Shown: positions 26,463-48,064, counted from the stretch's first letter. The stretch is 64,000 nt of DNA from a virus (IMGVR_UViG_3300020060_000010:13230-77229), one strand, 5' to 3'. Numbers and translations: made by a program. Notes: a model not told the origin generated them from the letters alone.

Positions 26463-26507
26463 AGAAAGACCCTGACGCTTTCTCACATGGAGCGCTTATC
26501 AGGGTCT
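26463..26507 (-). terminator. Intrinsic terminator
   Basis: AGACCCTGA/TCAGGGTCT stem followed by TTCT. Confidence 0.6.
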
Positions 26508-26727
26508 AACGCGGTGCCCGAAGGCTGTTACCATGTACAGGTATTGTGTGTTTCTCTTGGTTTCCTGGTACTTGATCCTGTACTGCAACCCTCTCAAAAT
26601 GCCATCGGTCTTGAGAGTTATTAAAGTCGATCCTAGCGCTTGGTCAGACTCCATGGCTACTAGAAAGGTCTGATACTTCCTAGTCTCACATCTACCCTGC
26701 TTTACGTCACAGGTCGGGGATCAACTA
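26508..26727 (-). ncRNA. Candidate structured ncRNA A
   Basis: Five hand-paired stems between a consensus promoter and a terminator; a 51-aa ORF without RBS (26499..26654) is the alternative. Confidence 0.4.
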
Positions 26728-26733
26728 CTACTA

Positions 26734-26762
26734 ACTATACTGTTTTCTCTGGCTCCCGTCAA
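26734..26762 (-). promoter_or_regulatory. Sigma-A/70-type promoter
   Basis: TTGACG-17-TATAGT. Confidence 0.75.
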
Positions 26763-26789
26763 GGGGTTTCAGAACTTTTTTTCAGCAAA

Positions 26790-27012
26790 ATGCCCCACCG
26801 TGGTTGGCTTCTGAGGGCGAACAGGTGGGGCACTGCTACAGGTACTCCTGCGAGAGGATTGCATTCAAGTCATGATGGTCGCGAGGGACTTTCACCCCAT
26901 CTTCTGCCGTGTGGGCAGACGTTTTGTGTTACAACCATGATTAAACTACGCGGCTAGACTTGACTACTTGTTGACAGCTAGCAAAGCACGTTCTAGAAAA
27001 CTTCGCTGCAAG
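26790..27012 (-). ncRNA. Candidate ncRNA B with a tRNA-like cloverleaf (26876-26955)
   Basis: TAGTTTAA...GG D-arm start, TCTGC/GCAGA stem with 7-nt loop, GGGG-TGAAAGT-CCCT arm, ends ACCA; promoter TTGTGC-17-TATATT (27017-27045); closing hairpin TGCCCCACC/GGTGGGGCA plus TTTT. Confidence 0.45.
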
Positions 27013-27101
27013 TACTAATATACTACTTCTTCAACTTCTGCACAAGAAAATCGAGGAACTTAATTAAGTTCTTTAGTGCGGCCGAGACGTAGTAGCGCCA
27101 G

Positions 27102-27308
27102 CTATAGCGTGCCATCTGTTCCGGCTCTGCTGAGAATCCATGCAACGACGATCGCAACCGCTCCGATGATGAGAAGAGTTACTGCTGAAGCGATAGATCC
27201 CCAGACACCCAGGATGGCCAGCACAAGTACCACTGCGCCGACTACGAGAAAAAGTACGCCGATACTACTTACTACACGTGTTAGAGACATTTGACCTCCA
27301 GTGATCAA
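27102..27308 (-). CDS. Membrane protein (2 TM)
   Basis: Almost entirely hydrophobic. Confidence 0.7.
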   Translation of the reverse strand: MITGGQMSLTRVVSSIGVLFLVVGAVVLVLAILGVWGSIASAVTLLIIGAVAIVVAWILSRAGTDGTL

Positions 27309-27333
27309 CTACACCTTATCATACGGAGGCCGA

Positions 27334-27729
27334 TCAGTCAAACGTCGCTTGTGGATCATTGTAGTTCGGTCTGAACCTAAACTCGATGCCCTTCATGTCT
27401 TGTACTCGATACTTGTAGGTGACAGTCGTTGTCTTACCTTTGGCGAGACGGATGGAGTTAGGACTCTCGACCAGGACCGCGTTTCCCTTGCTGGTAGACA
27501 GACCGGTCAACGGGCGTATCTCTACTTTCATACCTGCTCTGTTAGTGATCGTAACGCGGATTGAGACCTTCTTGGCCTCTTTGTCCAGGATCGGCTTAGC
27601 TGCCTTGATTTTGTAGTCTCCAAGTGTAACTGAATCACCAAAATCGAGGTGTTTCACCTTGGCAGTCTTCTCTGGCTCGCAAGCAGAGAGAAGCAACAGA
27701 AGAACTGCTACTACTGCCAGGATCTTCAT
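27334..27729 (-). CDS. Lipoprotein with Ig-like (DUF4352-like) domain
   Basis: Start moved to MKILAV; lipobox LSAC; V.V.ITN...L..GK......F pattern. Confidence 0.7.
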   Translation of the reverse strand: MKILAVVAVLLLLLSACEPEKTAKVKHLDFGDSVTLGDYKIKAAKPILDKEAKKVSIRVTITNRAGMKVEIRPLTGLSTSKGNAVLVESPNSIRLAKGKTTTVTYKYRVQDMKGIEFRFRPNYNDPQATFD

Positions 27730-27953
27730 TACACGGCCTCGATGTCCTCTGCGTTCCACAGCATTGTCTTTGGCTTCTTCGGGTTAAAAGTGTCTTTCTG
27801 TCCATCCATAGCAACAATGTAGACCTCTGCTGCTATTCCTGCGTACCGGATAACTCCAGTCTTGCCGAGTTGAGAGTCGGTTGCTACGTGCTGGATAATT
27901 CTAACTCGCGTCCCTGCCGGGAGGAGTGAATCGGTCTTCGATTTCAAGCTCAT
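27729..27953 (-). CDS. KOW/SH3-like small protein
   Basis: LPAGTRVRI...GKTGVI...Y.V.MD. Confidence 0.65.
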   Translation of the reverse strand: MSLKSKTDSLLPAGTRVRIIQHVATDSQLGKTGVIRYAGIAAEVYIVAMDGQKDTFNPKKPKTMLWNAEDIEAV

Positions 27954-28083
27954 GATAATCTGCGCCTACCTTCCAATTGTCGCGATACCAGAATGCTGCC
28001 TCGCTTGCGGCAGGCCAGAACTTGTAGACTCCTTGGACTTCATCTCCCCAGTCGTCACTGGTGATTACGACGTAGACATTCAT
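27901..28083 (-). CDS. Hypothetical protein
   Basis: VYVV...GVY motif. Confidence 0.55.
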   Translation of the reverse strand: MNVYVVITSDDWGDEVQGVYKFWPAASEAAFWYRDNWKVGADYHELEIEDRFTPPGRDAS

Positions 28084-28271
28084 CAGTCATCCCACCCAGG
28101 AGGAGTAAATGTGCTAGGGATGCGCTCCATGTACACATAGATAGCCTCGCCGTACTCGCCAACATCGATCCAATAGTCACGACACTCGTTAGCGGCCTCC
28201 AGGTTGTCAAACATACCCAAGTCTACGGCCAGAATCGTTTCGTTCGACTGCACGGTCCAAATCAGCATCAA
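28083..28271 (-). CDS. Hypothetical protein
   Basis: Overlaps neighbours. Confidence 0.6.
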   Translation of the reverse strand: MMLIWTVQSNETILAVDLGMFDNLEAANECRDYWIDVGEYGEAIYVYMERIPSTFTPPGWDD

Positions 28272-28474
28272 TTGCCTCTCTCTAGTAGTTCTACATTCCA
28301 GGCAGATACTACTCTCGTTCTGGCCTGGCTGTCAAGAGAGATTACGTGCAACTTCTGGTTGATTTCCAACTCTGACACCGCATCCCACTCGCTGTCGATG
28401 TGGTCAATGACCCAGCGAGGGACGAGACGGTTGTTCTTGAGAGCTACCACGTCGCCAATTTGATATTCACTCAC
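28268..28474 (-). CDS. KOW/SH3-like small protein
   Basis: YQIGDVVALK. Confidence 0.6.
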   Translation of the reverse strand: MSEYQIGDVVALKNNRLVPRWVIDHIDSEWDAVSELEINQKLHVISLDSQARTRVVSAWNVELLERGN

Positions 28475-28805
28475 GAGGAAGCTCCACTTCTACTTCTACA
28501 ATGGCGTAGTTTTGACTCCGGCTAGGATAGTGAATCTCTGCATCTTCCTTGTTCGTGAAAGTGTTGATATACCGAGCATCAGCCTTACGTAGTACTACAT
28601 AGATGTAGGCCCAAGTCTTCTTCTTCCAACCGATAGTGTCGCCAATCTTGACCTTCTGGCCGTGGACCACATCGATCTTATCGAGGTCCCAGTATCCGTT
28701 ACCACCTTCTGCGTTGAACACAGTAAAATGGTCAGGCTTAAGGAACTCCACGGCGCCGTTAATCACTGCCTTGATAGGGTAGTACTCACCAGTCCATTCA
28801 GTCAT
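28467..28805 (-). CDS. Hypothetical protein
   Basis: Overlaps neighbours. Confidence 0.65.
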   Translation of the reverse strand: MTEWTGEYYPIKAVINGAVEFLKPDHFTVFNAEGGNGYWDLDKIDVVHGQKVKIGDTIGWKKKTWAYIYVVLRKADARYINTFTNKEDAEIHYPSRSQNYAIVEVEVELPRE

Positions 28806-29134
28806 CGGTTGTCCTTGACGTACTGAGCCAGAAGGAGAATGTACTCTCCTAGCGCATAGCGGCTTGGCGGCTCGTCGCTTTCAAGAGCGTTGCCGAGAGT
28901 GTCAATGATTTCATCAAGCTTATCCTCTGCCAACTCAAGCTCGTGCTCAGTGTAGAGGATGTTTAGTTCGCCACTGTCTGGATGATTGACCTTGACGCGG
29001 TAGTTCAGAGTGTTATATGGACGATGTTCTACTACTGTGCCGACTAGTCCGATAGTGGTGGTGTTATTAGGATTAAATTCAGTCTGTCCATTGATATTAG
29101 TTACACGAACCTTGTCGCCTACTTTGAAGCTCAT
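28802..29134 (-). CDS. KOW/SH3-like protein
   Basis: Start moved to MSFKVGDKVRV; GLVGTVV...Y.V...ELEL. Confidence 0.7.
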   Translation of the reverse strand: MSFKVGDKVRVTNINGQTEFNPNNTTTIGLVGTVVEHRPYNTLNYRVKVNHPDSGELNILYTEHELELAEDKLDEIIDTLGNALESDEPPSRYALGEYILLLAQYVKDNR

Positions 29135-29349
29135 AGGTATACATCCACCTCTCTGATTACACAACGGTCGTCACGGGTAAGCTGATGATACTCTGCTGTC
29201 CGCTCATTGTCGAATGATTCGGATAGAGCCCATCCTCCGCCGACACGTGGTACAAAAGTAAGCCATACCGTGACAGGCTCGCACCACTCGTCATCAGCGG
29301 AAGGATTATAATCTACAGCGTCGTCGTTCTCATCGTAGCCGTCAGTCAT
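29131..29349 (-). CDS. Hypothetical acidic protein
   Basis: 4-bp overlaps. Confidence 0.6.
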   Translation of the reverse strand: MTDGYDENDDAVDYNPSADDEWCEPVTVWLTFVPRVGGGWALSESFDNERTAEYHQLTRDDRCVIREVDVYL

Positions 29350-29531
29350 GCTCTCGCCTCTACGATTGCCGTGATGGTGGTCTGAGAGGGTTCACGCTGG
29401 TCTCCGTGGTCAACTGAGATGTCAATCTTAGCATCACCATCGGCAACCTCGTCCAGGAACTCCTGCAGATCTCCTGCCGTTAGTGCCGAACCAGTGACGG
29501 TCATCGTGTAGGTCTGAGTAATCTTAGTCAC
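29346..29531 (-). CDS. Hypothetical protein
   Basis: Overlaps neighbours. Confidence 0.6.
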   Translation of the reverse strand: MTKITQTYTMTVTGSALTAGDLQEFLDEVADGDAKIDISVDHGDQREPSQTTITAIVEARA

Positions 29532-29703
29532 TCTTTGCTCCTCGCTCTAGTGTCTCAACACGCTCTTCTAGTTCCTGAAGGTACCCTACAAGGTAGTCGA
29601 TGTCAATACCACAGTCACGATCTGGATCGGAATTCAGTGATCCAGTGTCGATCTGAGCCTTGATCTCGTCGCGGCGAGTGAAGGTGTACTTGTACTCAGG
29701 CAT
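29524..29703 (-). CDS. Hypothetical protein
   Basis: Start moved to MPEYKY; GGAGG RBS. Confidence 0.6.
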   Translation of the reverse strand: MPEYKYTFTRRDEIKAQIDTGSLNSDPDRDCGIDIDYLVGYLQELEERVETLERGAKSD

Positions 29704-30511
29704 TGTCCTCCACTTCCTCCGCAAGACGCTTGACAAGCTGAGCAAGAGAGGCTAGGTCGTAGCCCTGGCTACCAGCAGTGGTGTACCTCTTGCTGGTGTA
29801 GTCGTAGAACGCCTCTGCAAGCTCGGAGAGGGTCTTCTTCTCAACCTTGAACTTAGGTGCAGTAATCTCTACCTTCTTGAGCCATTGGCCATTTAAATCA
29901 AGAGTCTGTGGAATACTGGTCTTGTCGAGCCGAACAGTGTAAATGTCCTTCTTGTCAGCGACAAGATGAATAACAGTACCCGTATCTCCACGAGCAACAC
30001 TGTAGTGCGAAAACGATACGGTAATCTTTACCTTGTCACCAACCTTGAACTTAGGCTCTGGTGCAGGAGTAGGTACATGCTCAAGCTCGTAGTGGTAGTA
30101 CCAGAAGGTATTACCGTTGGGGTATTCTACGCGGATCTGGTTGTTAGCACCGTTCTCACTCAGACGAAAACCAACAATTACACCGTTACTCCGGGAATCC
30201 TTGACGCGAACCTTATCACCAGTGCCGAAACCGTACACCTTAAGAACATCAGAAGCTTTGATAGTGTTGGAAGCTACGTTAGACTTCTCTGCCGCCTCTA
30301 CAAGCCTCTTAACCGCGCTATGATGCTCAACAAAGGTCAAATCCTCGGCGTACTTATTGCAAACTCTGTGAGTGGCCTTGCTGTCATCCCAGTAAACAAT
30401 ACGATAAATGTCAGGTGACTTCTTGAAGCTGCCATAGATGTTGCCGGTAAGAGTAACGCCGTCGATAGATCTCTTAAATGAAACTAGGTCTCCTGGATAA
30501 AACTTGGTCAT
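29696..30511 (-). CDS. Protein with three tandem KOW/SH3-like domains
   Basis: FYPGDLVSF, FGTGDKVRV, FKVGDKVKI. Confidence 0.75.
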   Translation of the reverse strand: MTKFYPGDLVSFKRSIDGVTLTGNIYGSFKKSPDIYRIVYWDDSKATHRVCNKYAEDLTFVEHHSAVKRLVEAAEKSNVASNTIKASDVLKVYGFGTGDKVRVKDSRSNGVIVGFRLSENGANNQIRVEYPNGNTFWYYHYELEHVPTPAPEPKFKVGDKVKITVSFSHYSVARGDTGTVIHLVADKKDIYTVRLDKTSIPQTLDLNGQWLKKVEITAPKFKVEKKTLSELAEAFYDYTSKRYTTAGSQGYDLASLAQLVKRLAEEVEDNA

Positions 30512-30544
30512 ACTGTCTCCTTTGTTAGTGTCATGTGGTGTAGA

Positions 30545-30847
30545 TTACTCTGTCTCGTCTGCCGTGTCAAGCCAAAACTCAGACTTGATCCCCGAAAGTG
30601 TGTCATGCCAGGCAACGCACGTGTAGATGGTGTAACCTTCACTGTTCTTTACAGAAGCGCCGTTAGTGCCCAGGAGAGGTACATAGAGGTATTTAACCTC
30701 CTGCTTAAACGTGTACGTCGTGCTTGGAATCTCGCGGCCAGTAGCGAACACCTGGCCATCTTGAGGACCTCCCTGCCAGATGCAGGGTGTCAATCTTAGC
30801 GCGCCCATGTCTCTCCTTGTCTCGTAGTGTTGGTTCCAACGTATCAC
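30545..30847 (-). CDS. Hypothetical protein
   Basis: Start uncertain. Confidence 0.55.
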   Translation of the reverse strand: MIRWNQHYETRRDMGALRLTPCIWQGGPQDGQVFATGREIPSTTYTFKQEVKYLYVPLLGTNGASVKNSEGYTIYTCVAWHDTLSGIKSEFWLDTADETE

Positions 30848-30862
30848 AAGCTTCTAGTGCCG

Positions 30863-32680
30863 TCAAGGCAATCCGCGAGTCATTTCAAAATTGTTTGCTG
30901 GCTCCGGCTTTACCTTGTCGAAGTGTGCAGAGAAGTACCACACAGAGTCACCAGTAGGAGTTGGTGTGAACCAATTTCCTCCGCGCGAAAGTGCCTTGAC
31001 CTCAAATGTCGTTCCGAGCATAACCTCGCGCTGTCGCTCTCCATGAGTATCACAACTACGTAGAGTTACTACTCCTCGGTTGGCTTCTACTTTGTCTCCA
31101 ATAGAGAATTTGGGTGCGGAGATTGCCTTTGGTGCCGCTTTGACAAGCTCCAAGCAAACTGTGTCATAAAAGTACTTGGTGCCCTTGACCCAATCCTTTC
31201 CAACCTCCGTCACCTTGATGTGATAACCAGGACCGACAACCATACTACTTGTTGCGTTTGGCTTACTGCGAGAGGGAATGGTCTGAGTAGGAGTAACCCA
31301 ATCTCCGATCTTGAATTGTGGTGCCGGAGAAATAAGCGCTTCTGCAATTTTTTGATGATGGTCGTTTAGTGCTGAACTCAGAACAAAACGCGCTTGACTC
31401 TTGTCTCCGTCAAAGTGCTTCTTTGCTAACTTATAGTACTGCCTCTCAGTAAGTTCACCACTGATTACTGCTCTAATAAGACTACCAATGTTTGCGTCTT
31501 TGTATGTTTCTAGCACCGGTAGTTCAACAGAGACATACATCCGCGCGGGCTTACCAGTTACCTTGCACATAAGAATTGGTGCCGTTGTATCAGGATCACA
31601 ATACCTACAGGTGCAAGAGTTACGGATGCAATTCTCTGCCGGAGTGATACCAAAGGTGGGGTTGCAGGCTACACAAGAACAACTATCACTCGTCGCGTGC
31701 TGGTCTTTCGGAACATCGAGCCCAGGCAAAGAATAGGTACTGTATGCCGTTACATGGTCCATCTGCCTTTTGGCGAGTTCATAAGTATCATAGGTTGAAC
31801 TCTGTCGAGTGCCGTCCTTGTATGTGATGCAAAGGTAGTGGATGCCGTATCGAGACAGAATATCTGCCTTCTCAACCTGAGACCGCGCATTGTCCGCCGA
31901 GATAATGCTGGTGCTTACTACGGTCTTATCCTTCTTTAGTCGCTTGACTTCATTCCGTGCCGTTTCAATATTTAGAAGGTATATGGTTTCATTGGTGCCA
32001 TCATTGTAATTGATTTTTAGACAAATTCGTCCGGCTCTGTAATCCTCGTCCTTGGCAGGTACAGAGAGAGCTTTGTACTGATCTGTAGTTCTGAACTCTT
32101 CCCAATGGTCCGCGCACATAGGCAGACCAAACTTCTGTGTCCTGTAACAATCATCGTTACTGCACTTGTTGTCCTTAATAGGAGTAACGGACATATCTTC
32201 TGGAAGGACAACACTACTTCCTGGCAAACTGGCATGCCATGCTTCCGAATATGTCTTGAAAGACTCGTTAGTGCCGTTCTTTTGAGTGACAACGTAATTG
32301 AGAGGTACATAGATAGAGCTACTACTACTGATCCGTTTCATAGGGTCTTTGTACTGGCATTCTGTACATACGCACTTGTCAGGGTGCTCAGAGAGGGTCC
32401 ATCCCAACTCGCGCTCTTGGGCATTAATGTAGAGCCAATCCACGCGGCTGTCAAAATCGTTTGGATCAAGTTCCCTCTGTTGCTCTACCTTGGGTGCCGA
32501 CTCGATAGCTGTCTTGGGAAGCTGTTGAATGATTGACACGGCGATAGGAGTAATTGCCAGAGCAGCAGCGCCAAGGATAGCCAGGATGACACCGGGACCG
32601 AACGCGACGCCGACAGTGGTCAATACAACGATACTCAGAGCCATGACACAGAGCCAGAACATACTCTTTGCGCTGGTCAT
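30863..32680 (-). CDS. Large membrane-anchored mosaic protein (2 TM, Cys clusters, internal repeats, two KOW-like domains)
   Basis: 605-aa ORF; see findings. Confidence 0.8.
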   Translation of the reverse strand: MTSAKSMFWLCVMALSIVVLTTVGVAFGPGVILAILGAAALAITPIAVSIIQQLPKTAIESAPKVEQQRELDPNDFDSRVDWLYINAQERELGWTLSEHPDKCVCTECQYKDPMKRISSSSSIYVPLNYVVTQKNGTNESFKTYSEAWHASLPGSSVVLPEDMSVTPIKDNKCSNDDCYRTQKFGLPMCADHWEEFRTTDQYKALSVPAKDEDYRAGRICLKINYNDGTNETIYLLNIETARNEVKRLKKDKTVVSTSIISADNARSQVEKADILSRYGIHYLCITYKDGTRQSSTYDTYELAKRQMDHVTAYSTYSLPGLDVPKDQHATSDSCSCVACNPTFGITPAENCIRNSCTCRYCDPDTTAPILMCKVTGKPARMYVSVELPVLETYKDANIGSLIRAVISGELTERQYYKLAKKHFDGDKSQARFVLSSALNDHHQKIAEALISPAPQFKIGDWVTPTQTIPSRSKPNATSSMVVGPGYHIKVTEVGKDWVKGTKYFYDTVCLELVKAAPKAISAPKFSIGDKVEANRGVVTLRSCDTHGERQREVMLGTTFEVKALSRGGNWFTPTPTGDSVWYFSAHFDKVKPEPANNFEMTRGLP

Positions 32681-32889
32681 CAGTCGTCCAAACTCAGTCG
32701 TTCTACCTTGTGCGCGCTTAGCCAGAATGCCTCTGAGCGGTCATCAGAATAGCTTGGACGGACATGTAGGAAGCTACCCATACTTGCATACACTGTGACC
32801 CAGGTTCCGCGCTTGTGCCCGGATCGTACACAGACAATCTCTCCTTTGTCAAAAGGACGCCGGTCAGACTCCTTAGTTGTGTTAGACAT
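32680..32889 (-). CDS. KOW-like small protein
   Basis: FDKGEIVCVRSG. Confidence 0.6.
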   Translation of the reverse strand: MSNTTKESDRRPFDKGEIVCVRSGHKRGTWVTVYASMGSFLHVRPSYSDDRSEAFWLSAHKVERLSLDD

Positions 32890-33082
32890 CGATGCTCACA
32901 CCTTCCCAATAGTTGTCGCCGTGTGCATAGTCAAAACTCGTTTCGTCCGCAAACTCAAAGTGCACCTTACGAACAGTATTGCAAATATAGATACCGTAAT
33001 CTGTCTCAGTTACAATTTCAATTTCCGGGTCAAACTCGCCCAACTTCTCAATTAGCTCACGTACCTTCATTTCATGCTCCAA
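32882..33082 (-). CDS. Hypothetical protein
   Basis: MKVRELIEKL..FDP motif. Confidence 0.65.
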   Translation of the reverse strand: MEHEMKVRELIEKLGEFDPEIEIVTETDYGIYICNTVRKVHFEFADETSFDYAHGDNYWEGVSIDV

Positions 33083-34651: not shown

Positions 34652-34672
34652 TGTTCCACCTTTCCTAGTCTG

Positions 34673-36999: not shown

Positions 37000-37086
37000 T
37001 TCTCTCCTAGTGGTTAGTCTTTGCTTTCTAAGTCCTAATCTACTCTGGACTTCGCTGTCCGTCAAGGTGCTATCTCAGGATGTGGA

Positions 37087-39394: not shown

Positions 39395-39424
39395 TTGACA
39401 AAGATTTGCCCAGTATTTTATAAT
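39395..39424 (+). promoter_or_regulatory. Perfect-consensus promoter
   Basis: TTGACA-18-TATAAT. Confidence 0.75.
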
Positions 39425-39430
39425 TGAATC

Positions 39431-39680
39431 TTAGTACTTAAATAATTACTTCGTACTCTCTCATAACTCATACATTTCTCGTTCCTCGAAATGCATAAGT
39501 TATTCAAGAATACTCAGTAATTATGAAAGAAATTTTGAAATTCATTTCGGAAAACAACAAACGAAAAAAACTAACTTAGCGGGAAAGAATTCCAGTAGTC
39601 CGAAGGACAGTTCTCTTCCGGCATACCGAAGGTAACTATCTCCGTTCCGCTTCGCTCCACTACGATAGTTGTGCTGCAAC
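39431..39680 (+). ncRNA. Candidate AT-rich structured RNA upstream of HNH gene
   Basis: Nested stems ATAATTACT/AGTAATTAT, ATAACT/AGTTAT, CATTTC/GAAATG; GTCC-GAA-GGAC; AACTATC/GATAGTT. Confidence 0.4.
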
Positions 39681-39710
39681 CACTCAATTTTTAAAATTGG
39701 TACAATGGAC

Positions 39711-40074
39711 TATGACAAAGAGACGTAGAACAAGAATTTCCTACAGAGCTAAGTACCGTAGGTACTTGAAGAGTAAAGCATGGTCTGATAAACGAAATCA
39801 GTATTGGAATTCTTCATCAACTCGAAAAACTTGTTTGTTCTGCGGAAAGAGAAGAACTCAAGCTAAGTTAGATTTACACCACCTTGATTACTCACATGTT
39901 TATAACGAACGTCTGAAAGATTTGATTCCGCTCTGTTCTATCCTTGACAGGACAGGAAACGGATGTGGAGCACACAAGACAGTAACTCTAGCTTGGTCAA
40001 GAGAGAAACGTCTACCTGTTAAAGATAGACGCACTCTCAGACAACTAACCTTTGACTTGATCCCGCTTAGATAG
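39711..40074 (+). CDS. Small HNH endonuclease
   Basis: Y..YLKS..W...R, CLFCG, LDLHH.DY..V..E.L.DL..LC...H; ATG 39711 lies 5 nt after TGGTACAAT (leaderless-type). Confidence 0.8.
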
Positions 40075-40098
40075 AGTTCACGAACGAAAGAACTGGCA

Positions 40099-40329: not shown

Positions 40330-40487
40330 CTGCTTACTCACGTTGTCTCCCTTGTTCTCTTCCCGCGCCTTGCGGGTGATGGGTGAAACGTATCCTGTCT
40401 GCTGACCAGAGTCAAACACCTGTCTCAAGATGTAAGATGACCCCGGCAGGGCTTGACAGATCCGGAACGAGAGAGTAGATTTCTGTC

Positions 40488-40935
40488 TATCGGGTCAAGC
40501 GAAACCGTAGGGATTGCCTCACTAGCTCAGCAGTCAGGACTAGGGTTGAGTCTCTGAGAGTAGCGCCATAGTTACTCCGGAGATACCCGTAAGTGTCGGC
40601 TTGACAGTAGGAAAGCAAGATGATAGCGTGAGACCAGAACGAACGGCCACTGTGCCACTAGTAAGGTGGTGATTATCATGACTGGGCCAGAGAAAGACTG
40701 GCACCCGAAAGCTTGACAACAGAATAGCTTGGCGGAACAATCCTGAATAAATAGGATACTCCCCAAGTCAGTCCGATATAACCAGCCGGACTATAAATGG
40801 ACTTGGTTGGGTTGCATAGCCCAATAGTATGCCGTACTGGAAATCATCCGAAAACAGAATCCCGGTGTGATCTCAGGAAACCGTCTCTACAAGCCGTAAA
40901 CCGCAAGAGACGGACCCACCTAAACTTCTATGAGA
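40488..40935 (+). ncRNA. Candidate large structured ncRNA C
   Basis: About 450 nt with no credible ORF and at least seven hand-paired hairpins, after promoter TTGACA-17-TAGATT. Confidence 0.5.
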
Positions 40936-40945
40936 GAGGCAGACC

Positions 40946-41158
40946 ATGGCCAAAGGCAAGACAAGCTCAGCACCAAAGGCGAAGTTTTACGTCCTAGTCG
41001 GCCACAACGGCACTGTGCTGCCCTTGACGGCGCTTTGTGTAGCTCACCTGACCAAAACGAATTACCTGCCGCTACAGCGCCGTTTTGACCTCTCCCAATG
41101 GGCGCAGGTCAGCGAGGGAACCTGTATCATCTGTCCGGATGACGAGACTGGGGTTTGA
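40946..41158 (+). CDS. Early hypothetical protein
   Basis: GAGAGG RBS. Confidence 0.6.
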   Translation: MAKGKTSSAPKAKFYVLVGHNGTVLPLTALCVAHLTKTNYLPLQRRFDLSQWAQVSEGTCIICPDDETGV

Positions 41159-41212
41159 CAGTCTGCCCGGTCTGTGATTAGATACAGCTATCAACTACTG
41201 AAAGGTAAGACA

Positions 41213-41491: not shown

Positions 41492-41682
41492 TGATCGGCC
41501 AGCGGCTCGTGATCGACCCGGTAGAGTGTGAGTGTACCGACTGTATCCTAGGCGATTCCGTGCCCGCTGACAGGCTCACAGAGCGTCGCAAGGATCGTGT
41601 GGCGCAGGATGATCCGGGTGTGATTGATCGTACCGGCTACAGTGAGCGAGACTGGGACCAAATCTTGCTGACCAGTATGTGA
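41491..41682 (+). CDS. Early hypothetical protein (CxCxxC)
   Basis: TAATG overlap with upstream stop. Confidence 0.65.
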   Translation: MIGQRLVIDPVECECTDCILGDSVPADRLTERRKDRVAQDDPGVIDRTGYSERDWDQILLTSM

Positions 41683-41892
41683 GACGGGGCTTGACTTGCC
41701 CAGTCGGCAGGCGTAGAGTAAAACTTAATAGAACAGCAGGGAAGCCGAGAGGCAGAGTAGGTCCAGGGTCAGGCCGTAAAGCGTCGGGCGGACAGAAAAC
41801 TCTCGGTAGTTTCAATTCTCGATAGCGCGACATAGAGAAATGTCTCTATCGGGAGTTGTGATTCAAAACCCTAACGAGAGATAGGCGAGACA

Positions 41893-42015
41893 ATGAAGGT
41901 TCGCGCGTTGATCGTAATCTTTTGTTCTATTGCAGCACTTATCGGCTTTCTACTGCCGCCGGACCCTTGGCAAGCAATTGCGGATGCCATTCGATCTTAC
42001 TACACTTATAACTAA
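41893..42015 (+). CDS. 40-aa membrane peptide
   Basis: Hand translation MKVRALIVIFCSIAALIGFLLPPDPW...; AGACAATG start. Confidence 0.55.
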   Translation: MKVRALIVIFCSIAALIGFLLPPDPWQAIADAIRSYYTYN

Positions 42016-42035
42016 GAAAACGAGAGGAAATCGAC

Positions 42036-42281
42036 GTGCTGACCGAATACTACCAACTGACAATCGACAGAGACAATCATCCCCGCGTCACTGAGACGTT
42101 TCCGAGCGCGCGGGAGGCGTGGACGTTTGTACTGTCTCAGTATCCTACCCTCACCACATTCTCTGCCGGACTGGCAACTGGCCTACGGATGGCCGACTAC
42201 CCGACGCGCGTAGAGTTTGACCTTGACTACAGCGGAGGATACATCACCGCGTCAGTGGAGCGTGTTGTCCCTGTCTCATGA
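42036..42281 (+). CDS. Early hypothetical protein
   Basis: AACGAGAGG RBS. Confidence 0.65.
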   Translation: MLTEYYQLTIDRDNHPRVTETFPSAREAWTFVLSQYPTLTTFSAGLATGLRMADYPTRVEFDLDYSGGYITASVERVVPVS

Positions 42282-42353
42282 TGCGGACAGGCTTGACACC
42301 GGACTGACGCGGGTATAGATTAGTTCTTACAAGCCAAACGAAAGGGCAAGACA

Positions 42354-42539
42354 ATGGGAAAGTCAAAGCGAGACCTTGACCAGGACTGGCGAAACTACGG
42401 TCCGAACGAAGGCTACGCGCAAGCGATGGCGGACCTGAGAAAGTCTGGCGCGGCAGGGTTTCATATCCCGACCCCGAATCGTGAACGCCAGAGAGGGCAG
42501 GCTACACGCCGCGCCATCCGTGACCAGTGGGAAGGGTAG
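42354..42539 (+). CDS. Early basic hypothetical protein
   Basis: AAACGAAAGG...AGACAATG start after promoter. Confidence 0.7.
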   Translation: MGKSKRDLDQDWRNYGPNEGYAQAMADLRKSGAAGFHIPTPNRERQRGQATRRAIRDQWEG

Positions 42540-42544
42540 GGACC

Positions 42545-42691
42545 ATGCTCTACATCGTCGCCAACGGCCCCACCAATGCCCGCAGGATCGCTGCTGAGCA
42601 GTCAGGCGGACGTCCGGTCAAGTTCGTTCGTACCCTGTGTGTGCCTGGTCAGGGACGCACGTATGAATTCAAAATCCTGCCCAGCATGTAA
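42545..42691 (+). CDS. 48-aa early protein
   Basis: Hand translation MLYIVANGPTNARRIAAEQSGG... Confidence 0.55.
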   Translation: MLYIVANGPTNARRIAAEQSGGRPVKFVRTLCVPGQGRTYEFKILPSM

Positions 42692-42770
42692 GATACCGGT
42701 TGACATCCCGCCGGACCTGAGATAAATTACTACCAACAGTAAAGAAACCAAAACTTTAAGGGAGAAAGAA

Positions 42771-43079
42771 ATGACCGACTTCTATGTGTCCCGCGAATCG
42801 TTCGACAACTTCACGGACGAGAATATCACTCTTGCGGAGTTGGTAGAGTCCGAGCTTACCGACAATAAGTTGCACGAGTTGCATGACAGTGACCTTGACG
42901 AGATTTACGGCACTGTGACCGTGGCGGGATATGAGTATGATACTGCCCGCGCTCTGAAGTCCCTTGACGAAGTCGCGTATAACGAGAGCTTCAATAATTT
43001 TATCGATGCGGAGTGCAAGAACACCGGTTACGGTTCGATCGTTTCCATTGACCCCGAAACGGGTAGCGAAGATTACTGA
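42771..43079 (+). CDS. Early strongly acidic protein
   Basis: AAGGGAG RBS after promoter; LDEIYG.V.VAG.EY..A.ALK..DE.AY motif. Confidence 0.75.
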   Translation: MTDFYVSRESFDNFTDENITLAELVESELTDNKLHELHDSDLDEIYGTVTVAGYEYDTARALKSLDEVAYNESFNNFIDAECKNTGYGSIVSIDPETGSEDY

Positions 43080-43164
43080 CCTCCGAGAGCTTGCTTGCCC
43101 TAGGAATGTCCCCCGCATCCTAGGGTGGGTTAGACCCCGGCAGGACCTATGAGAGGCTCACAGC

Positions 43165-43308
43165 ATGCTCTACACCATTGTAACGACTGACCGTGCAGGA
43201 CTCGTCACAGCCAAGCATGAGCGCCTGACCAAGGATCAAGCGGACGCGCTGGCACTCAGTATCGAGCTTCCTGCCGGACACAAGATCACGCGGCGAGAGT
43301 CAAAGTAG
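43165..43308 (+). CDS. 47-aa early protein
   Basis: Hand translation MLYTIVTTDRAGLVTAKH... Confidence 0.55.
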   Translation: MLYTIVTTDRAGLVTAKHERLTKDQADALALSIELPAGHKITRRESK

Positions 43309-43403
43309 AAAGAGTCTCATCATCCGGACAGGACTTGACGGCACCGAAAGACTAGAGTAGGTTAGTACTTAGAGGGAGAGAGACTCCCAAACGAGAGGAA
43401 ACC

Positions 43404-43658
43404 ATGATGACACGGCACTCCAATTGGGACGATTACCGGACCGAAGCAGAGTATTGGACGGTAGTCGACACGTTCAGCGGTCAGGCCACGGTCTACGTCT
43501 CCAAGGCAGGAGGCGGAACGATTGGCAAAGAATACTCCGGCACCTGGTACGTTGAAATTCAGCTCAACGGAGAGATCTACTGGGAGTCTATTGAAACCGG
43601 TATGCCGCACGATCACGACCGTGTTGCTAAGCTAGCAGTCGACCTTAAGTTTGATTGA
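43404..43658 (+). CDS. Early hypothetical protein
   Basis: AAACGAGAGG RBS after promoter. Confidence 0.7.
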   Translation: MMTRHSNWDDYRTEAEYWTVVDTFSGQATVYVSKAGGGTIGKEYSGTWYVEIQLNGEIYWESIETGMPHDHDRVAKLAVDLKFD

Positions 43659-43755
43659 TCGCCGTCTGAGCAATTTTGATTCCCGACTGGGGTTGACACT
43701 CAGTCGGGTTTCATGATAGCTTCAGATCAACGTCAAACCAACGAAGGATACGGAA

Positions 43756-44079
43756 ATGTTCTCAGATAAGGCAGTCGCAAAGTTCACTGTCGGAGTAGTC
43801 GCAGTTGTGGCAGTTGTGGCGGGTGGATCATGGGTCTATAACCAGAACGTCCAGAGCGCGGCGGAGGCTAACAAGCCGGTAGCGATTGACGCCTGCACAG
43901 CGGCCATCCGTTCCCGCGTCCCTGCTGCCACTGTGAGCGGCTCGGAAGCGTTCGGCTCACTGGCAGACGGCTTCACTGTGACAGGCCGTGTGAGCGTCGC
44001 AGGCGTCTCTGCCAGCTACGTCGGAGACGTGGTCAAGCGTGGCGACAGTCTAATCTGTACGATTGTCAGCGCTGGCTGA
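43756..44079 (+). CDS. Early membrane-anchored protein
   Basis: N-terminal TM, two Cys in ectodomain. Confidence 0.7.
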   Translation: MFSDKAVAKFTVGVVAVVAVVAGGSWVYNQNVQSAAEANKPVAIDACTAAIRSRVPAATVSGSEAFGSLADGFTVTGRVSVAGVSASYVGDVVKRGDSLICTIVSAG

Positions 44080-44166
44080 GACTGTCCACATCGCAAGATG
44101 ACGCCTTGACAGGCTCAGTCCGGCAGGATAGATTGATCCTAACGAACCAAACGAGAGGTTAAGACA

Positions 44167-44361
44167 ATGCGACCCTACTCTTTCTTTAATGACTCTGAAC
44201 TTGACGGACAGATCGACGCGATGCATGCCTGTGGAGAGGATCTGACCAACGTTCTCTATGAGAAGTCTCTCCGGCTGGCAGGCTTTCCGGATGCCCGTTA
44301 CAAGGCTGTCGGCTGGGGCGAGGATAAGACTTGCGAGCGCGTGGCCCCGTGGATTGACTGA
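44167..44361 (+). CDS. Early hypothetical protein
   Basis: AAACGAGAGG...AGACAATG start. Confidence 0.7.
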   Translation: MRPYSFFNDSELDGQIDAMHACGEDLTNVLYEKSLRLAGFPDARYKAVGWGEDKTCERVAPWID

Positions 44362-44483
44362 GCCTACGAAAAGGCGTGAAAAGCCTATGTTTTTGCGTAA
44401 TAAAGATATGACAGAAACTATTGACAGAGTTTGAAACTCAGATTACAATCGCACATATCAAACCACTATCTAAGGATATCGCT

Positions 44484-44762
44484 ATGAATGCTGCAGACAT
44501 CGTGATCGGCCAGGACATCATGGTAATGAAGGATGAAAGCGGGCTAGGCTTTCCGGCGGTCGTGAGCATCGTTTCTGCTAGCGTCCTAAACCATCCGAGC
44601 GGTGTCTCCCACCGTGTCATTGTGACCAATGGGGACGGGCACTACGGGGTTGGCTACGTGGTCCAGCGAGGGTCAGCCAAGCCACGGGTGATGATTCGGG
44701 AGGAAGCGGACTTCCACAATGAGTTTGCCATTTCCGACTCCGCTGACCGAGACTGGAACTAA
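44484..44762 (+). CDS. Early hypothetical protein
   Basis: Start moved to MNAADI; TAAGGA RBS; promoter TTGACA-17-TACAAT. Confidence 0.65.
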   Translation: MNAADIVIGQDIMVMKDESGLGFPAVVSIVSASVLNHPSGVSHRVIVTNGDGHYGVGYVVQRGSAKPRVMIREEADFHNEFAISDSADRDWN

Positions 44763-44912
44763 TTTTCAGTAGCCCTTGACAGGCAACCGGCGGGCGTGAC
44801 ATGATGAAAGCTTAGCCTCAAATCGGCAGTCCAAGATGTGAGACAGGCACTTGACTCCCTAGGCGGGTAGGGAGTAAGCTACAGTTAACGGATCGAAACA
44901 AGGGGAGAAATC

Positions 44913-45086
44913 ATGAGCAAGCAAAGCGTACTGAACCGGATCAATGACTTTCTCAACGGCATGGCTGACGGAGTCGCGGCGGAGGTAGTCAAGGATACTG
45001 GCCTGGTCTACGTGGCGGGTCAGGGTGCCCTTGACGCTGACCAGTACGCGGAGTACCTCGCGGGAGAAGAGACGTCCACATCCTGA
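44913..45086 (+). CDS. 57-aa early protein
   Basis: Hand translation MSKQSVLNRINDFLNGMADG...; AAGGGGAG RBS. Confidence 0.6.
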   Translation: MSKQSVLNRINDFLNGMADGVAAEVVKDTGLVYVAGQGALDADQYAEYLAGEETSTS

Positions 45087-45157
45087 GATAGCACTTGACC
45101 AGGCAGGACAGACAGAGTAGGCTACAGCTAAGAAGTCAAACACACCAGGGAGTCAAA

Positions 45158-45418
45158 ATGTTCGAATTGCGAATCGTCGGAGGAAGCATCCGGAAGCCGG
45201 TTGACCACACGGAAGAGTTTGACTCGGTCGAGGCAGCATGGAGCGCGGCTGGACAGATTACCAAGGCTTGCCAGTATGATTTGGGATACATGCGAGCACT
45301 AGGTCAGCACGGCAACACGGACGTTCTGCACTCGGTTGAGACCAACGCCGGATTGACCTACCGGGTGAGTGTGACCGGACCGGATCAGGTTGCAGGCAAG
45401 CCCCAGACTGACCGGTAA
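45158..45418 (+). CDS. Early hypothetical protein
   Basis: Start moved to MFELRI; AGGGAG RBS. Confidence 0.65.
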   Translation: MFELRIVGGSIRKPVDHTEEFDSVEAAWSAAGQITKACQYDLGYMRALGQHGNTDVLHSVETNAGLTYRVSVTGPDQVAGKPQTDR

Positions 45419-45518
45419 CGAGTTGTCCACGATGTGAGATCCGGGCTTGACACTGAGCCCGGACTCACGTAAGTTTTGTCTTAGCGGGAGAGATAGTCTC
45501 TCCGGCAGAGAGGTAGAA

Positions 45519-45725
45519 ATGAACACCCTTGATTATCTCCGCTGGATGGGCGAGGATTCGGTCTATGTTCGGTCCGCTGACCTGCTCACTGACGTTGTGG
45601 TCACTGACCACTACCGGAACGTGATTGCCAGTTTCAAGGATTGCACCGATGCCGAAGCTGACAAAATCATGGCAAGCTTTCCGGTCAAGGTGGGCGAGAT
45701 TATCGGCAGGGTCGAACACTACTGA
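45519..45725 (+). CDS. Early hypothetical protein
   Basis: Start moved to MNTLDY; GAGAGGT RBS. Confidence 0.65.
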   Translation: MNTLDYLRWMGEDSVYVRSADLLTDVVVTDHYRNVIASFKDCTDAEADKIMASFPVKVGEIIGRVEHY

Positions 45726-45798
45726 CCGCTTTGGTAGCCCATCCGATGGGTGGGTTGCCATGGCAGGCCAGAACGGCACCAACAGAGGAGGCAGAGAC

Positions 45799-45993
45799 AT
45801 GAGTAACGATGACAACCCCTACACGTGTACGGGAGAGGCTCAAAAGATGGGCAAGGGAGAGCGGGTGAGGGACATCTTGTTCCATGGTCTGGTCCTTCCC
45901 CTGGTCGGGGCGGCATCGGTGATCGTAGGTCTCTACGCGGGAATGACACTCGATTCATTCCTAGGACTGTCTCGGCTGGTTTACGGGAAGTAG
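45799..45993 (+). CDS. Early membrane protein
   Basis: Start moved to MSNDDN; GAGGAGG RBS; one TM. Confidence 0.65.
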   Translation: MSNDDNPYTCTGEAQKMGKGERVRDILFHGLVLPLVGAASVIVGLYAGMTLDSFLGLSRLVYGK

Positions 45994-46087
45994 GAAAACT
46001 GCCAAGAAGTTGGCAGGAAACTAGCGGGTAAACCACTTGACACGGCAGGCAGGGACCGGTAATGTTTGCCTTGCGGGGATGAAAACT

Positions 46088-46221
46088 TAACAGAGAGTCG
46101 GCCAAGAGAATACGGCGACAGACCCGAAAGGGCTCACGTCGATAGGGTGTCAGCGACAGATACTAAATCCGGCAGACCCGGTACCCGTCAAACCATGGTA
46201 GTAACCACCGACTCTCTGTTA
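46088..46221 (+). ncRNA. Candidate multibranch RNA D (5' leader or independent ncRNA)
   Basis: Perfect 14-bp closing stem TAACAGAGAGTCGG/CCGACTCTCTGTTA enclosing CCC-GAAA-GGG and other hairpins. Confidence 0.6.
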
Positions 46222-46259
46222 GATCTTCACTCTCGACCGAACCGACGAAAGGCAAGACA

Positions 46260-46343
46260 ATGGCTGCACCTGCTACTTGTTCGGGAAACGGAACGTGTGA
46301 CCCGCGCATCCCTCACATTTGTTACAAGGGAACCAAAGCCTGA
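46260..46343 (+). CDS. 27-aa Cys-containing peptide
   Basis: MAAPATCSGNGTCDPRIPHICYKGTKA; GAAAGGCAAGACAATG start as in other early genes. Confidence 0.55.
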   Translation: MAAPATCSGNGTCDPRIPHICYKGTKA

Positions 46344-46362
46344 CAGACCAGCAAGACAGGAT

Positions 46363-46387
46363 GGCCCCGCTACGGCGGGGTTTTCTT
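46363..46387 (+). terminator. Intrinsic terminator
   Basis: CCCCGC-TACG-GCGGGG-TTTTCTT. Confidence 0.8.
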
Positions 46388-46702
46388 GCGTCCTGGCGCG
46401 CGTCTCTGACCTTGGCATGTCTGACCTGGACTGATGTACGGGAAGAGTCCTGAGCGGGCCGTGGCGGGCTGGCTACCCTCCGGCAGGGAGGGTCGGGCGT
46501 GAGCTTGCGAGCGACCGGGGTGGGTTGGGAGAGTCATCCCAAAGGATGGTCACTCAGTAGTATGAAGTATGTGATAAGGGATTGATGGTAGACAGATAGG
46601 TAGAACAAATGATAGGTTGGAAGGGATGAGTAAGAATAAACGTGCAACCAAGAGTTGCGCTTAGGGTTCAAACCAACATATTGAAGGATATCGATTTGAA
46701 AG

Positions 46703-46984
46703 GTGGTGATAATGATGGTCGAAAGGGTCATCAAACTTAGACATTCTCTCGCATTCCACGCGCGTAAAGGCGCTGAATTGTTCCCTGACGACGTGCCTAC
46801 GGGGAAACGGATATGCAAAGGCAAATGTGGTCTAGCCCTGCCTACGGGGAAGTTCTATACGTGGAAAGACCAGAGAGATAACCGCACCTATACCCGTACA
46901 GAATGCAAAGACTGTCACCTAGATAAGACCAATGAAGCGAGACGTAATAGGAAAGGCAAAGGGGTGCCTACGGGGACAGAATAG
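46703..46984 (+). CDS. Small Zn-finger protein (endonuclease VII N-terminal-like)
   Basis: KRICKGKCG..LP..KFY....R....TECKDCH; GAAAGGTGGTG RBS. Confidence 0.6.
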   Translation: MVIMMVERVIKLRHSLAFHARKGAELFPDDVPTGKRICKGKCGLALPTGKFYTWKDQRDNRTYTRTECKDCHLDKTNEARRNRKGKGVPTGTE

Positions 46985-47097
46985 AACTCTCTCCGCATGC
47001 CTACGGGGATTGATATGGGTATGCCTACGGGGAATGGGAAAGGCTATTCAATGCACTCTATTGACCCGCCTATTCATGTCCACGCATGCCTACGGGG
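46794..47097 (+). repeat. Six exact TGCCTACGGGG direct repeats
   Basis: Start at 46794, 46839, 46965, 46998, 47022 and 47087. Confidence 0.9.
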
Positions 47098-47719
47098 CGG
47101 CATCCATATCAAGGGCTAGATGCCTCTATGCGGGACCAGTAGACAGCTACCCATACAGACACACCATGGCAGGGGTCAACGCTCTCTAGGGTGGCACACA
47201 GGGGCAGGGAGGAGTGGTGCTGCTGTGAGTGCAGGCGCTGTAGGGGCACGTGTAGGGCGTCCAGTGGCGTTAGGTAGCCTAGCTATGTGGTTTGATGTCG
47301 AGTTCGAGTTGTAGGCGGGGTGGAGGGGATGGGGCGCGTTAGATACACCCCCAGCGAAACAGAGGCTGGCCCTCCCTCTTTTCGTAAATGGGCGTATTCC
47401 GTGGACACCGGAATGTCAAAAGTGTACCGAAAGTGGTACGGTTTTGACACGAGAAAATCCCCAAGTCGGAATAAGAGGCTGGCTATTCCGAGTTATCATT
47501 TAACGAGCTTGTCATCTATTAAAGGATATGACAAGTTGAAGCAAGTTATTTGTCACTTCCGCTCGACATGGTAAATATCCGAGGATAATCTTCTATGTTT
47601 TAGTGATATCATAGTTCACAATAAGGGCCAGTTCATTATTTTTATAAACAGTCTTAAGTTGAACGTAGCCATGTTTCTCGAACTGACCTGTTTCTTCTCT
47701 GAGGAAACGGAGAAACAAG

Positions 47720-47750
47720 AAAACCCCGCCGGATCTACCGGAACGGGGCC
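47720..47750 (-). terminator. Intrinsic terminator
   Basis: Minus strand GGCCCCGTTCCGG-TAGAT-CCGGCGGGGTT followed by TTCTTGTTT. Confidence 0.7.
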
Positions 47751-47754
47751 AGCG

Positions 47755-48064
47755 AGCACCTGTGGCTTTAACCACAGATGAGCTTACTCTTGCGCCTCAC
47801 CTCGGAATCAGTAGTGGCTTATCCGAAGTCTCTTGACTTGGTAGATTTCTCAGAGGCTCTACCTGCCCGCTGGTCTCACGTTCCCAGCAAACGCCTGGAG
47901 CCATCACTACAAGGCCACAGGAACTTCTTCTGTTTTTTTGACTTAGCCACGGTCCACATGGGGGGCCGCAAGCAGCACGACTAAGTCTTATCTCCTGTGC
48001 CGGAGTCCTGCGAGGCTCCTCCCATTTGAGCATTCTTTCGAAGAGGCTTGGGAGGATGTCTATT
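47755..48064 (-). ncRNA. Candidate structured ncRNA E
   Basis: About 310 nt with at least eight hand-paired stems, between promoter TATACA-17-TAGAAT (extended -10) and a terminator. Confidence 0.55.

Follow-up and report, generated by a model that had tools for sequence, protein, structure and literature searches.

The abiF RNA motif (AbiFr, RCd22) is the RNA antitoxin of AbiF, a HEPN RNase of the Abi_2 type, and the two constitute a type III toxin–antitoxin system of abortive infection (PMC12373285; PMC12737573; PMC13064643). The motif RNA binds AbiF directly and neutralises it both in trans and in cis, for which its stem structure is required, and in canonical loci the motif also attenuates abiF transcription (PMC12373285). 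Cas13 is proposed to have descended from AbiF (PMC12737573). In this study, a predicted hairpin of the abiF family was found in a viral DNA stretch of 64,000 nucleotides (IMGVR_UViG_3300020060_000010:13230-77229), which is called the window below and was taken from an IMG/VR virus record of 83.5 kb (bases 13230-77229). An initial annotation had proposed six structured non-coding RNA units in this window. These segments, namely, A, B, and E on the minus strand and the 39431 unit, C, and D on the plus strand, were compared in window coordinates, and the hairpin was located at the start of unit E. It was concluded that the six stretches are a mixed set and not one system. The orphan AbiF antitoxin hairpin of E was considered their most interesting element, for which a counter-defence role is plausible.

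RNA mimicry by phages reportedly has precedents. The pseudo-ToxI of Pectobacterium phage PhiTE, which Blower et al. are said to have described in 2012, reportedly mimics the ToxI antitoxin and allows escape from ToxIN. Furthermore, Camara-Wilpert et al. reportedly described in 2023 the RNA anti-CRISPRs (Racr), which are phage-borne, solitary mimics of CRISPR repeats. To our knowledge, escape from type III toxin–antitoxin defence by RNA mimicry has so far been shown only for ToxIN.

Unit E and the AbiF RNA antitoxin

Unit E extends over 48064-47715 on the minus strand, with its own promoter and terminator and a predicted transcript of approximately 350 nucleotides (nt). Its promoter, TATACA-17-TAGAAT with an extended -10 TG, was recognised in the sequence at 48071..48099 (minus). 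Approximately 9 nt past the transcription start predicted from this promoter begins a hairpin (48017..48055, minus), which the Rfam scan matched to the abiF RNA motif (RF03085) and in which the loops AAGCCUCU and GCUCAAAU were exact. The P1 stem is CCUCCC/GGGAGG, compared with CCCGCC/GGCGGG in the Rfam consensus, and its six pairs are maintained by compensated changes. The tip is extended and closed by GAAA. The same stem was also observed in the virus copies L045, L062, and L110.

At the Rfam gathering threshold, no match was obtained in the whole window, and at permissive thresholds the abiF motif in E was the sole credible one. The E-value of this match was 0.046 when 22.5 kb was scanned with all families, 0.0043 when 2.1 kb was scanned, and 4e-5 when the single family was run on the 83.5-kb record. 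The conserved-loop pattern occurred once in the window and 0 times in 100 shuffles, with a chance expectation of 0.00. When E was aligned with 78 distinct virus copies (79 sequences), the loop columns were invariant, and every invariant column was retained in E. The match scored 31.1 bits, compared with a gathering score of 37 for RF03085, because a 9-nt tip insertion and a 3' loop shorter by 1 nt are combined in E. Locus L062, in which the motif lies 32 nt before an Abi_2 gene, has the stem of E and the same 1-nt shorter 3' loop, yet it scored 49.9 bits. Similarly, the Abi_2-linked locus L148 from Verrucomicrobia has the GAAA-tipped extension of E, yet it scored 43.8 bits. On this sequence evidence, it was concluded that unit E carries an abiF-family hairpin. 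The initial annotation had stated that none of the six units matches a known class, which no longer holds, as E opens with RF03085; the covariance-model scan that it had recommended assigned E to abiF and left the other five units without a credible family.

No U-run directly follows the abiF hairpin of E; instead, approximately 300 nt of hairpins and a terminator are found. The body (47790..48016, minus) is predicted from its fold to be a multi-hairpin non-coding RNA, with a folding z of -1.7 in the sense and 0.0 in the antisense orientation, and no homologue of this body was found. The 3' end (47712..47789, minus) folds into two hairpins, the second of which (GGCCCCG...CGGGGUUUU) is followed by a U-run.

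In AbiF loci, an Abi_2 gene adjoins the motif, whereas the phage with E has no abiF anywhere. Pfam Abi_2 (PF07751) gave no match in the 83.5-kb record, and Abi_2 was not listed in the gene tables around the closed 120-kb genome. This genome is represented by a 120,196-bp ENA contig (ERZ27268008 k141_312667), in which the baseplate-J gene and a gene for an 809-amino-acid (aa) fibre protein are repeated at both ends. As the same genes stand at both contig ends, the contig was taken as a circularly permuted, essentially complete phage genome of approximately 120 kb. A local AbiF profile recovered its positive control, L148, at 3e-71, and its best match in the phage had an E-value of 0.02. Moreover, no trace of an AbiF reading-frame remnant was detected in E, and the possibility that E is a decayed abiF gene was rejected since such a remnant was missing. 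Thus, as the abiF hairpin is present and the toxin gene was not found in the genome of approximately 120 kb, E was regarded as an orphan antitoxin-type RNA, which is most likely a decoy.

In the case of the described systems, E resembles the abiF RNA family in its six-pair stem and its two loops. In RCd22, positions +9 to +41 hold the first motif (PMC12373285), that is, approximately 9 nt after the start of a sigma-70-type promoter, as in E, where the start is predicted. Among the abiF loci, L062 shares the stem of E, and L148 and L149 share its GAAA-tipped extension. However, RCd22 has two motif copies and E has one, canonical loci have a U-run after the hairpin and E has 300 nt more of structured RNA, and the cut-off of the abiF family is not reached by E. 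The two canonical loci with the extension are at L148:5470-6545 (Spartobacteria bacterium LR76) and L149:1584-2660 (a Verrucomicrobia metagenome-assembled genome). In both, the order is a promoter, an abiF motif with the GCGAAAGC tip, a U-run, and a gene for a 319-aa Abi_2 protein. Among the species genomes in the collection, the GAAA-tipped variant of E was found only in these two. The variants that are closest to E and have a toxin gene thus come from Verrucomicrobia genomes, which may offer a weak lead to the host lineage.

To place E among other viral copies, the loop pattern was matched to at least 119 IMG/VR contigs (loci L022-L140), with 78 distinct copies among the matches listed; the sample is biased toward motifs with an exact core. 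Just downstream of the motif copies, 7 of 23 open reading frames (ORFs) of 180-420 aa were Abi_2 among the matches listed, and the local AbiF profile found AbiF in 10 of the 119 loci so listed. When whole motif-bearing records of at least 20 kb were searched with Pfam, Abi_2 was present in 7 of 43 among the matches listed. Of the motif-bearing virus genomes that were at least 90% complete, again among the matches listed, 2 of 16 had Abi_2 and 14 did not. Copies also occur in cultured phages. In the lytic T4-like Acinetobacter phage Acj61, the motif lies in an unannotated intergenic gap (GU911519.1, 77197-77235) between a hypothetical gene and a GIY-YIG endonuclease gene, with tRNA genes close by. 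In Roseobacter phage CRP-143, it lies in unannotated DNA (OR420748.1, 21013-21053). In the literature, no paper was found that describes orphan phage copies of abiF as decoys. An own covariance model of the virus motifs was also attempted, and the MAFFT alignment gave no consensus pairs.

On this basis, a mechanism can be proposed. The RNA of E would be made by the phage during infection and would act in trans as a surrogate antitoxin that binds the AbiF of the host. While the host's own unstable antitoxin runs down, E would keep the host AbiF blocked, and the 300-nt body of E may add stability or further functions. We infer the transcription of E, its binding to AbiF, and its decoy effect from the features described above. 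Pseudo-ToxI is likewise a phage-borne, toxin-less look-alike of a type III RNA antitoxin and would neutralise its toxin in trans. However, pseudo-ToxI targets ToxN with tandem 36-nt repeats, and its effect was reportedly shown by experiment, whereas E would target the HEPN protein AbiF with a single hairpin, and its effect is predicted. In the case of Racr, a phage small RNA copies, like E, the RNA partner of a host defence protein. Racr reportedly hits a Cas effector and gives aberrant complexes, whereas E would be expected to keep a toxin–antitoxin RNase inhibited. With these systems E shares the property that defines a mimic, being a toxin-less copy of the RNA of a host system that is carried by a phage.

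An alternative is that the hairpin of E is a generic transcript element, which might stabilise the 5' end, serve as an attenuator or terminator, or bind another protein, or that it was left over from an AbiF locus once captured by the phage. The terminator-like T-run that follows 51 of the 78 distinct virus copies among the matches listed agrees with a generic element, as do the attenuation of abiF transcription by the motif in canonical loci (PMC12373285) and the single motif copy in E. However, the orphan copies show no variation in the loop sequences through which AbiF is contacted, and a mere hairpin or terminator would not need such constancy. In addition, no U-run follows the copy of E, and no remnant of AbiF was seen after the hairpin. 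Thus, this explanation was judged unlikely, and the decoy was retained as the preferred reading of E.

Several points weigh against the decoy reading. The score of the hairpin lies under the Rfam gathering cut-off, and E has a single motif copy, while RCd22 needs both of its two abiF motif copies (PMC12373285). No second copy was found in the genome, in which the runner-up scores were 12.7 and 11.9 bits. Among the matches listed, the virus copies with a T-run resemble terminators, for which a purely transcriptional role is possible; 55 of the 78 distinct copies in the same set lie outside long ORFs. In the literature searched, no test of a decoy role of abiF RNA in phages was found.

AbiF is an abortive-infection RNase of wide distribution, whose RNA antitoxin was not characterised until 2025. 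If toxin-less copies of this RNA are routine in phages, they would provide a simple and general escape by RNA mimicry from type III toxin–antitoxin defence. The idea is directly testable, given the 14 of 16 near-complete motif-bearing genomes without a toxin gene (among the matches listed) and the copy in the cultured lytic phage Acj61.

Conserved RNAs in units A and B

The initial annotation had proposed that homologues be collected and covariation tested. Since relatives of C, D, E, and the 39431 unit were not found, the comparative test was possible for A and B alone. The single useful relative from the protein searches was L141, a 22-kb Logan contig with 75-92% identity over window 22.7-38.5 kb, and it spans units A and B only. 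The further yields of these searches were L147 (a 3.3-kb contig, window 42.3-44.8 kb), L142 (a rearranged 2.8-kb contig), and otherwise identical copies, and a protein search of the representative set gave no close relative. Among cultured phages, no relative of the phage or of any unit was detected at the DNA level by blastn with near and distant settings. No relative was obtained from IMG/VR with three proteins flanking the units, and the capsid relatives in IMG/VR (40-47% identity) had no DNA resembling the units. An 18-mer from the core of unit A was absent from the IMG/VR search, and JGI metagenome contigs yielded nothing in one protein scan and one scan with the same core.

Unit A has the promoter TTGACG-17-TATAGT (26734..26762, minus), which is kept in L141. 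Its domain 1 (26618..26727, minus) is predicted to fold with a closing stem, GUUGAUCC/GGAUCGAC, around three hairpins. This is followed by an insert of 99 nt with two hairpins (26524..26622, minus), which according to the alignment to L141 is present in the window only. The 3' end (26461..26523, minus) comprises a GCC-UUCG-GGC hairpin and a terminator hairpin with a U-run, and its outer stem is kept in L141. When A and its counterpart in L141 were folded separately, the same junction of a stem round three hairpins, the UUCG hairpin, and the terminator were obtained in both. The 63-nt core of A differs from L141 at 5 positions (92% identity), compared with approximately 85% for the flanking genes. 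In domain 1, 29 pairs were compared, with 1 double change and 2 one-sided changes. The first hairpin differs from that of L141 in sequence and length and forms in both.

In the case of unit B, hairpin 1 (26977..27009, minus) starts 13 nt past the stop codon of the upstream gene, and of its 10 pairs, 3 were changed on both sides in L141. The middle of B (26845..26965, minus) folds into a three-way junction that is absent from L141 and is thus dispensable or an insertion. A Tymovirus tRNA-like identity was considered for this domain and rejected, as the score of 20.5 bits against a gathering score of 40 was at chance level and the domain is absent from L141. The terminator hairpin (26783..26840, minus) has the loop UUCGCCCUCAGAAGCCAA, which is unchanged in L141, and among its 19 pairs there were 4 double changes and 2 one-sided changes. 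In total, 58 predicted pairs of A and B were compared with L141, and 8 double changes, 5 one-sided changes, and 0 broken pairs were counted. The predicted pairing of A and B is kept in one relative, and for C, D, and E no homologue was found.

With its promoter, intrinsic terminator, lack of a coding signal, and core and fold kept in one relative, A has the properties of a small RNA gene and was regarded as a putative free-standing one. B would be an RNA of the 3'-untranslated-region type or a weakly promoted RNA. We infer a regulatory role for both. The complementarity of their conserved loops to phage mRNAs did not exceed 11 nt, which is chance level, and no link of A and B to defence was found. 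Consequently, the suggestion of the initial annotation that the units are decoys or sponges against host defences gained from the toxin-less abiF hairpin in E and drew nothing from A and B.

Two further observations were made beside A. Downstream of A, an ORF of 79 aa (26395-26156) scores negatively for codon usage and is missing from L141. In addition, L141 diverges fully from window position 26626 to approximately 25330, which gives a variable spot beside the conserved RNAs.

Putative leaders and the six stretches as a set

A codon-usage scorer trained on the long genes of the phage left gaps at the six named places. The ORFs inside the six segments had codon log-odds of at most 0.07 per codon, compared with 0.28 ± 0.08 in trusted phage genes. 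No good Shine-Dalgarno site was found before any of these ORFs, and the public contig annotation called zero genes in the six segments. The earlier statement that the segments lack credible ORFs was thus confirmed. The claim that they are six separate RNA units was not, as three of them (the 39431 unit, C, and D) pass directly into same-strand ORFs. In each of these three, a promoter, an untranslated stretch, and an ORF follow one another on one strand with no terminator between, as read from the sequence. Because same-strand ORFs come directly after them, leaders are a simpler explanation than separate RNA units, and the three are best read as putative 5' leaders of an HNH gene, an early operon, and a 27-aa peptide gene, respectively.

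The 39431 unit consists of a promoter and a leader of approximately 265 nt (39395..39696, plus) in an AT-rich island with 42% G+C, and it runs into an HNH-endonuclease-like ORF (39697..40074, plus; start at 39697 or 39715) with an HNH-type Cys/His pattern. This ORF matched an annotated phage HNH endonuclease weakly, with 35% identity and an E-value of 2e-4. Together, the unit and the ORF look like a typical free-standing homing-endonuclease cassette and its leader.

Unit C (40453..40945, plus) comprises three tandem TTGACA promoters at 40453, 40601, and 40713, as recognised in the sequence, and the leader of an early operon. The first promoter is TTGACA-17-TAGATT, and the other two lie inside C. 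The first ORF after C starts at 40946 with a GAGG site, and C sits where the leftward and rightward operons diverge. Accordingly, C is best read as the tandem early promoters and leader of the rightward early operon. In phage T7, the tandem early promoters A1-A2-A3 stand ahead of gene 0.3 with a long untranslated leader. C likewise has three strong promoters of like orientation within 260 nt and a leader of approximately 200-460 nt. However, C has no sequence relation to T7, no RNase III site was identified in C, and its first promoter has the operator-like motif of this phage.

Unit D comprises the promoter TTGACA-17-TAATGT and a leader of approximately 190 nt (46037..46259, plus), with a folding z of -3.6 to -3.7. 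A 15-pair helix (46087-46101/46208-46222) closes four hairpins, one of which has a GAAA loop, and D is the best-folded piece of the six. Directly after D, a 27-aa Cys-rich ORF (46260-46343) is followed by a GC hairpin and a U-run (46260..46385 in all, plus). The start context of this ORF, AAAGGCAAGACAATGG, recurs at the gene starts 41213 and 42354. D could be a leader with a regulatory role, or its RNA could have two functions. An RsmY identity after D was rejected, since the 20.1-bit match is merely the terminator, and masking of the ribosome site by the 5' end of D was rejected because the bases that are complementary come before the point where translation probably starts.

Some of the stretches were also considered as carriers of small proteins. 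The candidates were an ORF of 51 aa within A (26654-26499), the Cys peptide of 27 aa that follows D, and micro-ORFs. The ORF in A remains in frame across the 99-nt indel, and the codons shared with L141 have 2 synonymous and 2 conservative changes; the start context of the D peptide is common to two genes. However, no Shine-Dalgarno site precedes the 51-aa ORF, its codon log-odds are -0.04 per codon, its frame in L141 continues through the terminator and the next promoter, and Pfam gives no match. Hidden proteins were therefore considered very unlikely, and the reading of A as an RNA gene and of D as a leader was maintained.

According to the initial annotation, each unit follows a recognisable promoter. 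This applies to A, the 39431 unit (TTGACA-18-TATAAT, perfect consensus), C, and E. It applies less well to D, which has a perfect -35 (TTGACA), a 17-nt spacer, and a weak -10 (TAATGT), and to B, for which the sole candidate is the weak site TTGTGC-17-TATATT within the end of the upstream gene. The terminators proposed for A, B, D, and E were all recovered as a hairpin and U-run in the folds.

Regarding folding, the z of the whole units was -1.1 for A, -2.3 for B, -3.1 for the 39431 unit, -2.2 for C, -3.6 for D, and -3.4 for E, and 36 coding controls of 250 nt had a mean z of -0.07 with a standard deviation of 0.95 and 1 of 36 at -2 or below. After the terminators and the abiF hairpin were removed, the z was -1.65 for A, -1.5 for B, -1.7 for E, -2.5 for the 39431 unit, and -3.7 for D, and the thirds of C gave -1.7, -0.8, and -2.6. 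Thus, the description of the units as highly structured stood for the set, which exceeds the coding controls, but with the terminators and the abiF hairpin removed, only D, the 39431 unit, and the last third of C stand out. In A, B, C, and E, the complement of the assigned strand is the poorer folder of the two, and the reverse was found for the 39431 unit. In 39431-39690, the complement reached -78.5 kcal/mol compared with -52.8 kcal/mol for the sense strand, with a z of -4.25 compared with -2.5. An antisense transcript or a minus-strand structure is possible there, as modelled.

These values bear on a further explanation, in which the stretches are control DNA or untranslated spacers (promoters, terminators, operators, and origin-like repeats) whose RNA serves no purpose of its own. 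Without terminators, the bodies of A, B, and E reach only -1.5 to -1.7, promoters with a common operator-like motif upstream are densely spaced in the region, and a cluster of 11-bp repeats lies at 46794-47097. On the other hand, the 63-nt core of A is better conserved in L141 (92%) than the flanking genes (approximately 85%), internal hairpins beyond the terminators keep their pairing through double changes, and the sense strand is the better-folded one in A, B, C, and E. Control DNA was therefore judged quite improbable as the explanation.

The annotation had further inferred an undescribed non-coding RNA repertoire and a new system, which was overstated: E belongs to an Rfam family, three units are more simply read as leaders, and no sequence is shared. 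No similarity was found between the units or between them and the rest of the genome, and no ToxI-like tandem repeats were found. The comparison with GOLLD and ROOL was not borne out, as no Rfam match to these or to other large phage non-coding RNA families was obtained at the gathering threshold or with E-values up to 10. GOLLD and ROOL are likewise phage-borne and non-coding, but the six units are far smaller (190-460 nt) and mutually unrelated. In the strongest form of this view, all six would be independent trans-acting non-coding RNAs that jointly form a new anti-defence repertoire. The lack of a coding signal in any of the six, the folding of the set compared with coding controls, the antitoxin look-alike in E, and the heavy investment of the phage in RNA countermeasures favour such a repertoire. 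It is opposed by the three units that enter ORFs with no intervening terminator, the three promoters within C, and the absence of shared sequence. Moreover, the other five units have no match to a defence-linked Rfam family, and the middle domain of B and 99 nt of A are dispensable in L141. Little credence was thus given to the repertoire.

We consider a mixed set, in which E is a decoy, A and B are conserved RNAs, and the 39431 unit, C, and D are leaders, to have somewhat better than an even chance of being correct. Most of the repertoire claimed for the window would then be ordinary, that is, leaders and conserved small RNAs. Counted against the mixed set, A and B could be compared with just one relative, and conservation of terminator stems would be expected in any case; for C, D, and E no relatives were found that could support the folds by covariation; and the frame of the 51-aa ORF in A is kept across the indel.

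Phage genome and neighbouring features

The phage recurs near-unchanged in four other samples (ENA, JGI, and Logan assemblies) with 99.98-100% identity, and 1 mismatch and 2 gaps were counted in 20 kb. The samples with this phage include ERZ27268008, JGI 3300020061, and SRR7015891. Its genes include those for an HK97-type capsid, DNA polymerase III alpha, RecA, DnaB, and ribonucleotide reductase. The terminase large subunit (window 52571-55099) and the portal protein (window 55532-58798) each have a LAGLIDADG/intein-type insertion.

The window itself has zero tRNA genes, as determined with Rfam at gathering and with ARAGORN. A cluster of 17 tRNA genes lies left of the window on the minus strand (L152:8765-12586, which is 8.7-12.6 kb of the record), with Rfam tRNA scores of 44-67 bits. 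In the ENA contig, approximately 8 kb left of the 83.5-kb record, an RNA ligase gene (PF09414) adjoins a gene for a polynucleotide kinase-phosphatase (PNKP; KTI12/AAA_33/HAD_PNKP) at L154:15534-17749. An RNA ligase with a PNKP corresponds to the pair of T4 type, which mends RNAs after their cleavage by nucleases of the host. The pair and the 17 tRNAs fit a phage that is attacked by host RNases, which is circumstantial evidence. A 2H-phosphoesterase-like ORF at window 18224-18787 had been pointed out by the earlier annotation. In the most far-reaching reading, the phage would carry an RNA counter-defence arsenal alongside the RNA ligase, PNKP, and 17 tRNAs; E would be an AbiF decoy fused to domains that disarm other host systems, either neutralised or guided by RNA, and the RNA partners of still undescribed defence systems would be captured or mimicked by A, B, and D as sponges or decoys. 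This reading was regarded as highly improbable.

The operator-like motif (approximately CCAnnATGTGAGA, with the partial palindrome TCTCA..TGAGA) lies just upstream of the -35 box, from which a few bases separate it. Promoters with this motif were located on the minus strand at 37065, 38778, 39057, 40415, and 51091 and on the plus strand at 40453, 41691, 42293, 42700, 43335, 44106, 44851, and 45447. Its absence from the promoters that precede A, D, and the 39431 unit suggests two or more classes of promoter. The 11-bp repeat, TGCCTACGGGG, occurs in six copies at 46794-47097, in and after a small Zn-finger/endonuclease-VII-like gene. Public calls place no gene in the approximately 600 nt after the repeats (46985-47592), and this region may be origin-like.

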